From NCBI RefSeq assembly GCF_044324875.1, contig NZ_CP172185.1: a stretch of 64,000 bases of DNA; one strand, written 5' to 3'. This DNA comes from Escherichia coli. Lineage in GTDB: Bacteria; Pseudomonadota; Gammaproteobacteria; Enterobacterales; Enterobacteriaceae. The translations under genes and the position numbers were made by a program. The notes under the pieces were generated by a model. It was given only the letters and a program-made list of their open reading frames with translations. It ran no database searches and was not told the origin of the DNA. Of this stretch, positions 13,990 to 28,246 are shown piece by piece. The first letter of the stretch is position 1. The number at the start of each line of letters is the position of its first letter.

Positions 13990-14811
13990 TTATAAAGAAA
14001 TGGCAGAATACTCTGTGTTTATCCATGAGTGTTCCTTTTCCCAGGTGAATATCCATTTACGTACTGGTCCGGCCATCACGTTAAGGTAATAACTGTCATA
14101 CCCGGCCATCGTCGCCACCGGGTGGTACCCTTTCGGCACCATGACCACGTCACGGTTATAGACCGCCATACATTCATCAAGTGTGCGGTCATCGGTATAC
14201 ACCCGCTGCATGCAGAACCCCTGTTCCGGGTTGAGGCGATGGTAATAGGTCTCCTCCAGATAGCTCTCCTGAGGCGGGTTATTCGTATCGTGTTTATGGC
14301 TCGGGTACGAACTGGTACAGCCTTCGTTGGTCCAGACCTCGACGACCAGCAGGCTGTCAGCGGGCTTGTCTTCCGGCAAAATATTATGCACATAACGCTG
14401 GTTGTGGCCGTTACCGCGCGCTTCGCCATCGATATCCTGAGGTGCAATCAACCGCGTCGGGTATGTCCCTTTTCCCGGAGCGGTACAGACTGCCAGCTCC
14501 AGTTTCGTCAGCGCCTTCACCTGCACTGCCTCCTGCGGGGTGACGTAAACCGCCCAAGGTTTGATGCGCTCGAACGGGCTCATCCGCTCCCCGATATCAG
14601 TAAACTGTGCAGAAGGAGTGCTGATGAAAGCGCGCCCGGCCACAAGCACCAGACAGCGCTCTTCACTGACAGCGGGCAGCGTCAGTTGCTGCCCTTCCTC
14701 AAGTTCATAGGCCTCAAAGCCAACATATCCCCATCCGGCGCTTTCCGGCGTGACAGACTGAGTCCGCCCCTCAGCGTTCGGCTGTTGCCAGCGTGATAAC
14801 AGACGTGACAT
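13990..14811 (-). CDS. iolB: 5-deoxy-glucuronate isomerase IolB
   Basis: 273-aa cupin-type protein; position at end of iol operon. Confidence 0.8.
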   Translation of the reverse strand: MSRLLSRWQQPNAEGRTQSVTPESAGWGYVGFEAYELEEGQQLTLPAVSEERCLVLVAGRAFISTPSAQFTDIGERMSPFERIKPWAVYVTPQEAVQVKALTKLELAVCTAPGKGTYPTRLIAPQDIDGEARGNGHNQRYVHNILPEDKPADSLLVVEVWTNEGCTSSYPSHKHDTNNPPQESYLEETYYHRLNPEQGFCMQRVYTDDRTLDECMAVYNRDVVMVPKGYHPVATMAGYDSYYLNVMAGPVRKWIFTWEKEHSWINTEYSAISL

Positions 14812-14820
14812 GTCACCTCC

Positions 14821-15711
14821 TCAGATAAGCCCGGCGTCGCGCGCCAGGCGGCTCAGATTGTTATATCCCAGACGGGCGTAGGTCAGCGGATGGGCGATCG
14901 CCGGGTCCTGTTCAGCCTCCACCACCAGCCAACCGTGATAATCCTGCGTTTTCAGCAGTTGCATAATCGGCGGATAATCCACGCAGCCGTCACCCGGCAC
15001 GGTAAACACGCCGCTCAGCACCGCGTCGAGGAAGCTGGTTTTACGGTTTTTGACGTCCGCCAGCACGTCGGCGCGCACATCTTTGCAGTGAACATGATTG
15101 ATGCGCGATGCCCATCGCTGTGCCACCGCCAGCGGATCGGCCCCGGCAAAGGTCAGGTGGCCGGTATCCAGCAGTAAACCAACCTCCTCACCCGTGTGGA
15201 GCATCAGGTTGTCCACGTCTTGAGCGGACTCAATCACCGTGCCCATATGATGGTGGTAAGCAATCTGTACCCCCTGTTGCTGCGTATAGCGGGCGAACAC
15301 GGTGAGCTTCTCACCATACTCTTTCCAGCATTCCTGCGGGAAACGTGGGCGCAGGTGAACCGGCGTCTGCTGCTCACCGTGAATGCAGCCACTCACTTCC
15401 GCAAAAACCAGTACTTTTGCACCCAGCTCTCGCAGCAGCGTCAGATGCGACTGCACAGCAGCAATCTCGTCCTCTACACTGCGTTCCAACAGGCGGCCGG
15501 AATACCAGCCGGAGACCAACTGCAGGTCGTGGCGCTGCAAAATGGGCCCGAGCAGGCGCGCTTCTCGCGGGAATTTATTGCCCAGTTCGAAGCCAGCAAA
15601 ACCGGCCTCTTTCCCTTCACTCAGGCAGGTCTCCAGAGATGTCTCCGCGCCCAGTGAAGGCAGATCATCGTTCGTCCACGTCAGCGGGTTGATGCCCAGT
15701 TGTACACTCAT
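14821..15711 (-). CDS. iolE: inosose dehydratase IolE
   Basis: Xylose-isomerase-like TIM barrel; track ORF 14821..15747, start at MSVQLGINP (15711) avoids overlap with iolC. Confidence 0.8.
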   Translation of the reverse strand: MSVQLGINPLTWTNDDLPSLGAETSLETCLSEGKEAGFAGFELGNKFPREARLLGPILQRHDLQLVSGWYSGRLLERSVEDEIAAVQSHLTLLRELGAKVLVFAEVSGCIHGEQQTPVHLRPRFPQECWKEYGEKLTVFARYTQQQGVQIAYHHHMGTVIESAQDVDNLMLHTGEEVGLLLDTGHLTFAGADPLAVAQRWASRINHVHCKDVRADVLADVKNRKTSFLDAVLSGVFTVPGDGCVDYPPIMQLLKTQDYHGWLVVEAEQDPAIAHPLTYARLGYNNLSRLARDAGLI

Positions 15712-15722
15712 TGTCGTCTCCA

Positions 15723-25578: not shown

Positions 25579-25589
25579 AAAACCCCCTG

Positions 25590-27095
25590 TCAGCCCAGCG
25601 TCGGCATGGAGAACGCTGCACCTGTCTCCTGCTGCATTTCCGGCCAGCGTGCAGTGATGGTTTTCATTCGGGTGTAGAAACGCACGCCATCGTTCCCGTG
25701 AACATTGAGCGCGCCAAAAATGGAACGTTTCCAGCCACCGAAACAGTGGAATGCCATTGGCACCGGGATCGGCACGTTGACCCCCACCATACCCGCCTGC
25801 ACCTCTTCACAAAAGCGGCGTGCGCAGCCACCGTCACGGGTGAAAATGGCCGAGCCATTACCATATTCGTGTCGGTTAATCAGATCCACCGCGCTGGCGT
25901 AATCTGCTACGCGCACCACAGAAAGCACCGGTCCGAAAATTTCTTCTTTATAGATGGTCATCTCCGGGGTGACGTTATCGAACAGAGTCGGCCCAACGAA
26001 ATAGCCCTGCTCGTGCCCTTTCACTCTGAGGCCACGCCCGTCCACACGCAGGTTAGCCCCCTGAGCTTCGCCACTGTCGATATAGCCCAACACTTTGCTG
26101 CGGTGTGCGGCGGAGATCAGCGGCCCCATCTCGTTTTCTGGCGTCTGGTTCAGGCCAGGTCCGACGCGCAACGAAGCGATCTTTTTTTCCAGCCGGGCGC
26201 AGAGTTCATCAGCCGTTTTATCGCCAACCGCCACCACCACGGAAAGCGCCATGCAGCGTTCTCCTGCCGCACCATAAGCTGCGCCCATTATGGCGTTTGT
26301 CGCCATATCCATATCGGCATCCGGCATTAAAATGCAGTGGTTTTTCGCACCGCCGAGCGCCTGACAGCGCTTACCGTGGGCGGACGCAGTCAGGTACATG
26401 TATTCGGCAATCGGTGTTGAACCGACAAAACTGACGGCCTGCACGCGCGGGTCGGTCAGGAGCACATCAACGGATTCTTTATCGCCCTGCACCACGTTGA
26501 ATACGCCGTCCGGCAGGCCTGCCTCTTTCAGCAGTTTCGCCAGCGCGAGCGCCAGAGACGGATCTTTTTCCGACGGTTTCAGCACGAAGGTGTTGCCTGT
26601 CGCCAGAGCTATCGGGAACATCCACATTGGCACCATCGCCGGGAAGTTAAACGGCGTGATCCCGGCGCAGACCCCGAGCGGCTGCATCAGTGAGTGGCTG
26701 TCGACACCTGTGCCAACGTTCGCAGAGTGTTCGCCTTTTTGCAGATGTGGGATGCCGCAGGCGAATTCTACCACTTCCAGACCACGGGTCAGTTCACCTA
26801 CTGCATCTGAGAAGACCTTACCGTGTTCTTCACTGATAATACGGGCCAGACGCTCCATATTCTCTTCAAGCAACGCTTTGAAGCGGAACATCACACGCGC
26901 GCGCTTGAGTGGAGCAAAACGTGCCCACGCGGGAAACGCCAACTGTGCTGCGGCAATCGCCTGTTCGGTTTCCTGTGCCGTACTCATCACCACCTGGCGA
27001 ATCTGCTCGCCAGTGGCCGGGTTGAAGATCGCCTGAATGCGCTGGCCTGAACCGGTGACACATTCGCCGTGAATAAAATTCGCTACCGTCTCCAT
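25590..27095 (-). CDS. iolA: malonate/methylmalonate-semialdehyde dehydrogenase IolA
   Basis: 501 aa aldehyde dehydrogenase with catalytic Cys region GERCMA and EEIFGPV. Confidence 0.85.
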
Positions 27096-27385
27096 CCTTA
27101 ACCTCTCGCTGTTGATACGTGATTGTTACCTGAACGTTATGTACTGAACACTATATATGAAACAAATATTCCATTTTAAGTTGAAATAAAATAAATAATG
27201 ATTATTGTGATCAAGGATGGATTTTTATGTGAACAGCCAGCATCACTGACTCAGCCTGAGCTATTAGGAGTTTCGGGCGAGGAAATGACTGAAGCTTCTG
27301 TTTCATTTTTGCTGCCAAGTGGATGGCCAACATTTAAAAGACGCGGTTTTGCGTTTAGAATCATGAGACTGGATAGGGGGATAAC

Positions 27386-28246
27386 ATGACGACAGCAACC
27401 AGCCTGAACGAACTACAAAAGCAAATCCGCGATCGCTACGATAGCCTGAGCAAAAGGCTGCAGCAGGTCTCCCGCTATGTACTGGATAATACGAACAGTG
27501 TCGCGTTTGATACGGTTGCGGTCATAGCCGAACGTGCCGATGTTCCACCCTCTACACTGATTCGTTTTGCCAATGCCTTTGACTTCACCGGCTTCAACGA
27601 AATGAAACAGTTATTTCGTATGCACCTGGTGGAGGAAACCGCCAGCTACAGCGATCGTGCGCGACTGTTCCGCGAAATGGAGAGCGAAGCCGTACCTGAA
27701 ACGCCGCTCGATATTTTGCAGGAGTTCGCCAGTTCGAACTCGCAGGCGCTGCAGCAGTTGGCTGCCCGCGCCGAACCGGAGATGCTGGAGCACGCCGTAC
27801 AACTACTGGCCTACGCCGACACCATTTACATCGCCGGATTACGCAGATCCTTTAGCATTGCTGCTTATCTTACCTATGCTTTAAGCCACCTAGAGTGCCG
27901 CCCTATTCTGCTTGACGGGATGGGCGGCATGCTGCGCGAACAGATCAGCCGTATTAAGGCGTGCGACATTGTGGTGTCGATCAGTTTCTCGCCGTACGCG
28001 GAAGAAACGGCGATGGTCAGCAAAACCGCCGCCAGCGTCGGCGCTCGGCAGATTGTGATTACGGATAGCCAGATCAGCCCACTGGCAACGTTCAGTGATC
28101 TCTGCTTTGTGGTGAAAGAGGCTCAGGTGGACGCATTTCGGTCTCAGTCGGCAACATTGTGTCTGGTGCAGTCGTTAGTGGTCGCGCTAGCTTACCGTTT
28201 AGGAGATAAAAAACATAATAATACCCAGGAAAACAGTAACCAATAA
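27386..28246 (+). CDS. iolR: RpiR-family transcriptional repressor IolR
   Basis: 286 aa, N-terminal HTH plus C-terminal SIS domain, divergent from iolA. Confidence 0.8.
   Translation: MTTATSLNELQKQIRDRYDSLSKRLQQVSRYVLDNTNSVAFDTVAVIAERADVPPSTLIRFANAFDFTGFNEMKQLFRMHLVEETASYSDRARLFREMESEAVPETPLDILQEFASSNSQALQQLAARAEPEMLEHAVQLLAYADTIYIAGLRRSFSIAAYLTYALSHLECRPILLDGMGGMLREQISRIKACDIVVSISFSPYAEETAMVSKTAASVGARQIVITDSQISPLATFSDLCFVVKEAQVDAFRSQSATLCLVQSLVVALAYRLGDKKHNNTQENSNQ

Follow-up and report, generated by a model that had tools for sequence, protein, structure and literature searches.

Organization of the inositol cluster

The window analysed here, a stretch of 64,000 nucleotides from Escherichia coli contig NZ_CP172185.1 (assembly GCF_044324875.1), contains a cluster of inositol utilization (iol) genes between positions 13990 and 28246. 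Eleven intact genes lie within these limits. Those on the minus strand are, from low to high coordinate, iolB, iolE, a fused iolC-iolJ gene, a gene of the Gfo/Idh/MocA dehydrogenase family, three genes for an ATP-binding cassette (ABC) transporter (permease, ATPase and periplasmic binding protein), iolG, iolD and iolA; iolR is divergent, on the plus strand. Intergenic gaps measure 8-51 nt, with the exception of the iolD-iolG (284 nt) and iolA-iolR (290 nt) spacers, and the G+C content of the cluster is 57% (vs. 51% for the whole window). Every cluster gene is already annotated in RefSeq, whose starts shorten three mechanically called open reading frames (ORFs), namely those of iolE, the Gfo/Idh/MocA gene and the binding protein. 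A first-pass annotation of this DNA had described a compact minus-strand cluster with divergent iolR; an ORF check reproduced its coordinates and strands, and all of its gene assignments proved correct. Judged from its genes, the cluster is very probably a complete, horizontally acquired block for uptake and catabolism of myo-inositol, a sugar alcohol from plants and the diet, and of a type common in Enterobacterales. It is real and well formed, and it is of an ordinary accessory metabolic kind that is already known.

We scored the encoded proteins against NCBIfam equivalog or exception models with curated cut-offs (all values in bits), and six enzymes exceed these cut-offs: 5-deoxy-glucuronate isomerase, encoded by iolB (13990-14811, minus strand as for all catabolic and transporter genes; TIGR04378 equivalog, 321 vs. 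a cut-off of 205); myo-inosose-2 dehydratase, encoded by iolE (14821-15711, RefSeq start; TIGR04379, 428 vs. 290); the product of fused iolC-iolJ (15723-17627; NF047869, 942 vs. 600), in which both a PfkB-type 5-dehydro-2-deoxygluconokinase domain and a DUF2090 domain, the aldolase of 2-deoxy-5-keto-D-gluconate 6-phosphate (DKGP), were found; myo-inositol 2-dehydrogenase, encoded by iolG (22382-23368; TIGR04380, 440 vs. 355); the thiamine diphosphate (ThDP) enzyme trihydroxycyclohexane-1,2-dione acylhydrolase, encoded by iolD (23653-25578; TIGR04377, 934 vs. 715); and CoA-acylating (methyl)malonate-semialdehyde dehydrogenase, encoded by iolA (25590-27095; TIGR01722 MMSDH, 676 vs. 448). All seven catabolic steps (IolG-E-D-B-C-J-A) are encoded and each is recognized by a curated equivalog-level model, so that with uptake and a repressor the pathway is complete.

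In the predicted pathway, imported myo-inositol would be oxidized by IolG to 2-keto-myo-inositol, which IolE would dehydrate; IolD would then open the ring and IolB isomerize the product. The kinase (IolC) half of the fusion protein would phosphorylate the IolB product to DKGP, which the aldolase (IolJ) half would cleave to dihydroxyacetone phosphate (DHAP) and malonate semialdehyde, and IolA would turn the latter into acetyl-CoA. The gene content suggests that E. coli carrying this cluster can grow on inositol.

The ABC transporter

The three transporter genes make up a CUT2-type sugar ABC importer according to NCBIfam: an IatP-like permease (18782-19810), which belongs to the CUT2 permease family and scores under all named equivalog cut-offs; an IatA-like ATPase with two nucleotide-binding domains (19822-21369); and an IbpA-like periplasmic binding protein with a Sec signal peptide (21421-22350, RefSeq start). 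In about 35 species this trio is located between iolG and the Gfo/iolC genes. Among PDB sequences the binding protein matches 4rxm (E-value 1.8e-135) and 4irx (3.6e-70) far better than E. coli RbsB (about 1e-38). Its AlphaFold model (predicted local distance difference test, pLDDT, 91.7) was compared with solved structures using Foldseek: 4rxm aligns with a template modelling (TM) score of 0.92-0.98 and 69% identity, and 4irx, Caulobacter IbpA bound to myo-inositol, with a TM score of 0.90 and 41% identity, and both outrank all ribose binders (24-32% identity). The 4rxm sequence is 100% identical to the product of a Mannheimia haemolytica locus, where its gene lies among iol genes.

The top NCBIfam names of the trio are those of ribose, arabinose and xylose components, as would be expected if it were an importer of ribose, xylose or another pentose merely placed among iol genes. 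We consider this extremely improbable: all three proteins fall far below the ribose, xylose, allose and galactose equivalog cut-offs (RbsB 166 vs. 337, RbsA 498 vs. 745 and RbsC 280 vs. 398 bits), the AraG hit is likewise far too low (525 vs. 689 bits), and the position of the trio between iolG and other iol genes is kept across species. In Caulobacter, deletion of ibpA, iatA or iatP abolishes growth on myo-inositol (PMC2597717). A ribose- or xylose-specific transporter, which had been considered at first pass, is rejected because these cut-offs are missed, because 4rxm and 4irx are closer than the ribose binders and because of the Caulobacter deletion phenotypes.

Sequence and modelled structure assign the transporter to the IbpA/IatA/IatP type of inositol ABC system, not to the ribose or xylose type; the IbpA-like protein would capture myo-inositol in the periplasm and the IatA/IatP-like importer would carry it inward. 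The first-pass view that uptake is by an ABC system rather than by an IolT-type permease of the major facilitator superfamily (MFS) holds, as the cluster has the CUT2 trio and no MFS IolT gene, but such uptake is nothing out of the ordinary, since clusters of this type in Enterobacterales and alpha-proteobacteria normally have it (synteny; PMC2597717).

An additional Gfo/Idh/MocA dehydrogenase

The Gfo/Idh/MocA paralogue (17640-18773, RefSeq start) occupies the same cluster position in nearly all orthologous loci. It scores below the cut-offs of the NCBIfam models for iolG and levoglucosan dehydrogenase, and its closest solved structure is the scyllo-inositol/L-glucose dehydrogenase of Paracoccus (5ya8, E-value 5e-96). 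In the HMMER alignment with 5ya8 it keeps the equivalents of the catalytic residues K106, D191 and H195, and also of H318, which in the LgdA-like dehydrogenase is contributed by the adjoining subunit (PMC5969746; in the same enzyme R178, on a flexible loop, and Y163 contact the substrate). Neither an inosose isomerase (IolI) nor a demethylase or rhizopine gene was found between 13990 and 28246 (ORFs and NCBIfam). We infer that the paralogue is a second inositol dehydrogenase with scyllo-inositol as the most parsimonious substrate. An entry step for scyllo-inositol is the simplest role, because its oxidation leads straight to 2-keto-myo-inositol and an inosose isomerase is absent from the cluster; the enzyme would thus most likely feed scyllo-inositol into the pathway as that intermediate.

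A second dehydrogenase in the transporter-catabolism operon, kin to a broad-specificity scyllo-inositol/L-glucose enzyme, could also mean that the main substrate is another cyclitol or derivative (scyllo- or D-chiro-inositol, pinitol or a rhizopine-like compound) and that myo-inositol is secondary, and the binding protein does match a rhizopine binding-protein model weakly (E-value 1e-12, far under the cut-off). This is very unlikely, since IolG exceeds the cut-off of the myo-inositol 2-dehydrogenase equivalog, the characterized relative of the binding protein binds myo-inositol (4irx; PMC2597717), the isomerase, demethylase and rhizopine genes are missing from the cluster, and Citrobacter koseri, which has a locus of the same type (L018), has been shown experimentally to use myo-inositol (PMC9430895). 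In the reading that we favour, myo-inositol is the main substrate and scyllo-inositol a possible second one.

Candidate regulatory sequences

The regulator gene iolR (27386-28246, plus strand) encodes an RpiR/MurR-family protein with Pfam domains PF01418 (HTH_6) and PF01380 (SIS), and it is divergent from iolA in all orthologous loci. For the non-coding comparison, orthologous spacers were aligned across genera (36 for iolD-iolG and 35 for iolR-iolA); in both regions near-invariant islands stand out within otherwise unalignable spacer sequence. The candidate operators, CRP-like site and candidate promoter given below are on the minus strand.

Upstream of iolG there are two candidate IolR operators. 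The first, TGAAATAAATGTTTTA (23416-23431), is 62 nt upstream of the iolG start, and its pattern is found in 34 out of 36 orthologous spacers, as is a conserved block, AAAATGAAATAAATGTTTTATTTGTAGTG, that parallels the block at iolA. The second, CGAAATTTTCATTTCA (23622-23637), lies 206 nt upstream of the first and is present in 29 of the 36 spacers; a repeat search reported it as an inverted repeat with 23418-23436. The spacing of the box pair in other genera is mostly 178-206 nt and the intervening sequence is not conserved. Between the two boxes is a CRP-like site, TGTGAGATTGATAACA (23500-23515), of putative function, whose TGTGA-N6-TAACA pattern, allowing for one or two changed bases, is retained from Enterobacter through Edwardsiella and Dickeya amid diverging flanks.

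A promoter scan of the iolR-iolA spacer gave a candidate iolA promoter (27150-27179; TTAAAA-18 nt-TATAGT) that contains the box TGGAATATTTGTTTCA (27158-27173). This box is present in 30 out of 35 orthologous spacers and the surrounding block, AAAATGGAATATTTGTTTCATATATAGTG, is almost invariant. A further box-like motif, TGAAACAGAAGCTTCA (27290-27305), 80 nt upstream of the iolR start, is a candidate autoregulatory site, and its conservation is limited to the loci of Enterobacter, Lelliottia and Citrobacter. The sequence GATCACAATAATCA (27199-27212), upstream of the iolA promoter, is almost invariant in all genera aligned; a search for a CRP site at this promoter gave no full site, only this conserved half-site-like sequence, which is not an IolR-type box either. 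The boxes are degenerate and AT-rich (pattern GRAAY-N5-YTTYA); as candidate IolR sites, they resemble the GGAA-N6-TTCC operator of Caulobacter IolR (see below).

Two hairpins are placed at operon ends. A short stem-loop (GGGGA-ATGAC-TCCCC, followed by TTTTG; 13953-13967, minus strand), 23 nt past the iolB stop codon, is a candidate intrinsic (bidirectional) terminator of the long operon. The other (23571-23601, minus strand), located in the iolD-iolG spacer, has a 14-bp GC-rich stem followed by a U run and is a candidate terminator or attenuator of the iolA-iolD unit; its minimum free energy (MFE) has a z-score of -4.25, and none of 200 shuffled sequences is equally stable. Terminator-like sites over the region number 17, compared with 17.0 in shuffles; the total matches the shuffle expectation, so only these two hairpins carry weight, owing to their placement. 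The terminator hairpins of the first-pass annotation are therefore retained at the two operon ends, without any overall enrichment. At the same iolD-iolG position, two Edwardsiella loci (L021 and L025) have a GC-rich hairpin of unrelated sequence, and two Citrobacter loci (L014 and L016) have repetitive extragenic palindromic (REP)-like palindromes directly after iolD instead of the hairpin. It seems that some structure persists here even though its sequence is not conserved. An Rfam scan of 10500-29500 (E <= 1), which included the 284-nt spacer, found no known RNA family.

In Caulobacter, an RpiR-type IolR acts via a GGAA-N6-TTCC operator, for which there is genetic proof (PMC2597717), and DKGP is the IolR antagonist in Salmonella (PMC5349611); a phosphosugar ligand fits the IolR described here because of its SIS domain. 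In the model that we propose, there would be two catabolic transcription units, one formed by iolA-iolD and the other by the eight genes that run from iolG through iolB, in addition to divergent iolR. IolR would repress both units via GRAA-N6-TTYC-like boxes over their promoters, DKGP would release it, and catabolite control would come from the CRP site. The two-unit arrangement is probable, and the roles of the operators, the CRP site and the inducer are putative. The paired iolG boxes suggest paired operators, whose spacing is possibly compatible with looping. That IolR bridges the two sites, which are about 200 bp from each other, by looping the DNA, a mechanism undescribed for this cluster type, is a tentative and somewhat doubtful proposal, an estimate that covers it jointly with the livestock niche discussed at the end.

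Several observations count against parts of the interpretation given so far. Myo-inositol is only the presumed ligand of 4rxm, and the literature searched gave nothing on this structure. The equivalents of R178 and Y163 are both His in the Gfo/Idh/MocA paralogue, so its substrate range may differ and it is a putative scyllo-inositol dehydrogenase. The U run of the iolD-iolG hairpin begins 5 nt past the stem, and this hairpin is not kept in all genera. At its end, the iolG-proximal box has TTTT in place of TTYC. The box pattern has eight matches in the window vs. 2.25 expected, and 2 out of 100 shuffles reach 8, but this count is circular, as those very sites served to build the pattern, and the sequence is AT-rich; cross-species conservation is the only independent evidence for the boxes. 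In the literature searched, nothing was found on growth with, transport by or expression of this E. coli cluster, nor any functional test of it in E. coli or description of its promoter architecture.

Related clusters in other bacteria

A scan with the binding protein, using one genome per species, gave 77 loci, which were then searched with all eleven proteins (tblastn). The same 11-gene order and orientation is found in about 35 Enterobacterales species, in the genera Enterobacter, Lelliottia, Citrobacter, Yokenella, Pluralibacter, Cedecea, Buttiauxella, Edwardsiella, Yersinia (including Y. pestis), Pectobacterium, Dickeya and Brenneria. Pasteurellaceae and Comamonadaceae have rearranged versions, and Providencia has the transporter only, beside other genes. 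Protein identity to the closest genera (Enterobacter, Lelliottia and Citrobacter) is 91-99%. Nucleotide homology to the native loci (87-90%) is confined to 14016 to about 28206, i.e. the gene block minus the last codons of iolB and iolR. A search for the donor among representative genomes gave no close enough match: nucleotide identity peaks at 87-90% for the chromosomal allele described here and at 92% for a plasmid allele (see below).

The native loci (e.g. those of Enterobacter soli, L006; Lelliottia nimipressuralis, L007; Citrobacter sedlakii, L010; and Y. pestis, L053) share not only gene order and orientation with the E. coli cluster, but also the candidate promoter boxes and the CRP-like site. 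Their G+C content, however, is 60-63% (vs. 57%), and the E. coli cluster, unlike them, is excised from the native flanks and lies between insertion sequence (IS) fragments together with an AT-rich passenger segment.

Homologous ABC uptake is also found in the module of Caulobacter crescentus and Sinorhizobium meliloti (IbpA-IatA-IatP, IdhA, IolCDEB, IolA and IolR; Boutte et al. 2008, PMC2597717), which shares the fused IolC-DUF2090 protein and the RpiR-type repressor, and whose GGAA-N6-TTCC operator is of the kind that the candidate E. coli boxes resemble. The alpha-proteobacterial module is scattered over two to four loci, whereas the E. coli cluster is a single contiguous 14-kb block; the E. 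coli boxes are AT-richer (GRAA-N6-TTYC) and the E. coli operon has the extra Gfo/Idh/MocA gene.

The iol islands of Salmonella enterica (GEI4417/4436) and E. coli ED1a have the same chemistry and are likewise patchy (PMC5349611, PMC9430895), and in Salmonella IolR repression is relieved by DKGP (PMC5349611). The Salmonella-type island, however, has MFS IolT transporters, the activator ReiD, SrfJ and many separate operons (PMC9430895), none of which is seen in the cluster of the window. The iolABCDEG-iatA genes reported from dairy-cattle E. coli (Haley et al. 2023, PMC10604827) are very probably the same cluster, being chromosomal E. coli genes from bovine hosts with an iatA-type transporter, and many of the carriers found in our survey are bovine too; that study gives presence statistics only, and no anatomy, synteny, regulation or origin.

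Distribution and mobility in E. coli

56-57 out of 5426 complete E. coli genomes match the cluster, and 49 copies are near-complete (~1%), which can be set beside the published figure of iol clusters in <2% of 20,632 E. coli genomes (Weber and Fuchs, PMC9430895). 42 of the near-complete copies are chromosomal, share at least 99% identity and come mostly from cattle and poultry (some from humans). The other seven represent a second allele (88.8% identity) on IncF-type plasmids, and the four of them that are also in PLSDB are typed as conjugative. One plasmid copy (L005; 8001-22152 of p14EC033c, NZ_CP024150.1) exemplifies this allele, whose carriers are IncFIA/IncFII conjugative plasmids in E. 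coli of porcine and human origin. Duplicated ardA/umuD regions enclose the insertion, which also adjoins IS30; directly after iolR comes a sequence with 82% identity to the IS3-family fragment at 10775-11062 of the window, in the opposite orientation. A Yersinia ruckeri plasmid has a 77.5% version of the cluster. Only remnants are left in a few E. coli genomes: strains 744 (NZ_CM132971.1), MMC-J-0085 and IBS28 keep a piece of iolB with a piece of a TIM-barrel gene, or only the last 613 bp of iolR, a sign that some lineages have lost the cluster by deletion.

In each of the 42 chromosomal and seven plasmid copies all 11 reading frames are intact, and the ratio of nonsynonymous to synonymous substitution rates (dN/dS) is 0.01-0.10 in comparisons with other genera and 0-0.3 when E. 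coli copies are compared with one another; strong purifying selection acts on every gene. This bears on whether an intact cluster might be cryptic in E. coli, with no practical growth on inositol, owing to silencing (e.g. by H-NS or tight IolR repression) or to a lacking host factor. E. coli is classically scored as inositol-negative, and decayed remnants of the cluster do occur in several genomes. The AT-rich promoter regions and the adjacent DNA of 34% G+C would be good H-NS targets, and the Salmonella iol island is under H-NS control and shows very long (bistable) lag phases (PMC10783015, PMC5349611). We nevertheless consider a cryptic cluster unlikely, given the intact frames and the low dN/dS values; the enrichment of iolABCDEG-iatA, as myo-inositol transport and utilization genes, in multidrug-resistant dairy E. 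coli (22% vs. 3%; Haley et al., PMC10604827), i.e. in a host-associated subpopulation, also argues for use. A functional inositol cluster remains the preferred reading.

The module common to E. coli strains spans 10789-28749 (18 kb, 99.3% identity) and is found in at least three chromosomal contexts: the ter island of the window, an argW-integrase island beside fec in ATCC 8739, and a site near uhpC and cdiA in strain C11. The first-pass annotation had proposed a mobile fitness island that links the iol genes to ter and an autotransporter. Mobility is upheld by the ~1% prevalence, the three or more contexts and the conjugative-plasmid allele, but the linkage is incidental and not a property of the module, because the same 18 kb sits beside fec or near uhpC/cdiA elsewhere.

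A repeat search (9800-30400) found no direct or inverted repeats linking the module ends and no att-like repeats, and there is no tRNA gene in the window. Since no repeats join the ends, the module appears to move passively, when IS-rich islands and plasmids recombine, and not as a self-mobile element. A composite transposon or other self-mobile element was considered and rejected, as there are no matching ends and the flanking IS3 pieces are non-overlapping (orfB C-terminus on one side and orfA N-terminus on the other).

Flanking regions

The cluster sits inside a large island, which in strain 135 begins at a tyrosine integrase adjoining ycjD and which also carries sitA remnants, a ter operon, an S6-family autotransporter (serine protease autotransporters of Enterobacteriaceae, SPATE) and an AbgT transporter. 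The stretch 13500-28700 recurs with 100% identity in the chromosomes of TUM9803 and of several poultry isolates; the remaining window matches the TUM9803 and poultry genomes with IS-related rearrangements.

On the right side, an IS3-family transposase (orfA) fragment annotated in RefSeq (28433-28742, minus strand) lies 187 nt past iolR, close to the right edge of the shared module (~28749), and an IS110 fragment (29021-29815) lies beyond it. On the left side, a fragment with the C-terminal integrase core of an IS3-family orfB (10748-10969, plus strand) marks the module edge (~10789). Between it and the cluster is the passenger segment (11000-13952, 34% G+C), with a frameshifted MarR gene (11222-11723) and an ORF (12395-12820; WP_000009634.1) that has no Pfam match; in each of the three E. 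coli settings studied, this segment accompanies the iol genes, and it is absent from the native Enterobacterales loci. The bounding IS remnants described at first pass thus apply on the right side, but only loosely on the left, where the nearest IS is 3 kb from iolB.

Further out, an IS30-like transposase gene (HTH_38 and rve domains; 30370-31392) lies in a stretch of ~2 kb (30284-32237) that is absent from the otherwise identical TUM9803 region, and an IS3 element (38002-39311) is inverted and relocated compared with TUM9803. At ~6590-7650, according to annotation transferred from TUM9803, sitA is intact and the next sit gene is a stub cut by IS66-family elements; as only this stub remains, the iron/manganese transporter of the island is probably dead.

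Biological meaning

ABC uptake of this kind is the long-known IbpA/IatA/IatP system, and iol clusters have been reported in E. coli before; the importance of the cluster is modest and it opens no new mechanistic question. It would explain a rare inositol-positive phenotype in E. coli and neatly exemplifies the transfer of an entire pathway, complete with transporter and regulator, in a single block: first from genus to genus, and later among the islands and plasmids of one species. The complete genomes that carry it come mostly from cattle and poultry, hosts on phytate-rich feed, and we suggest, with the same reservation as for looping (the two were assessed jointly), that the 18-kb module may help livestock-associated E. 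coli adapt to its niche, a role undescribed for this cluster type. If so, about 1% of strains would use myo-inositol, and possibly scyllo-inositol, from dietary phytate, and the trait would spread via island recombination and IncF plasmids. Given the livestock carriers and the link to multidrug-resistant dairy isolates in one study (PMC10604827), the cluster could serve as a marker or as a colonization factor.

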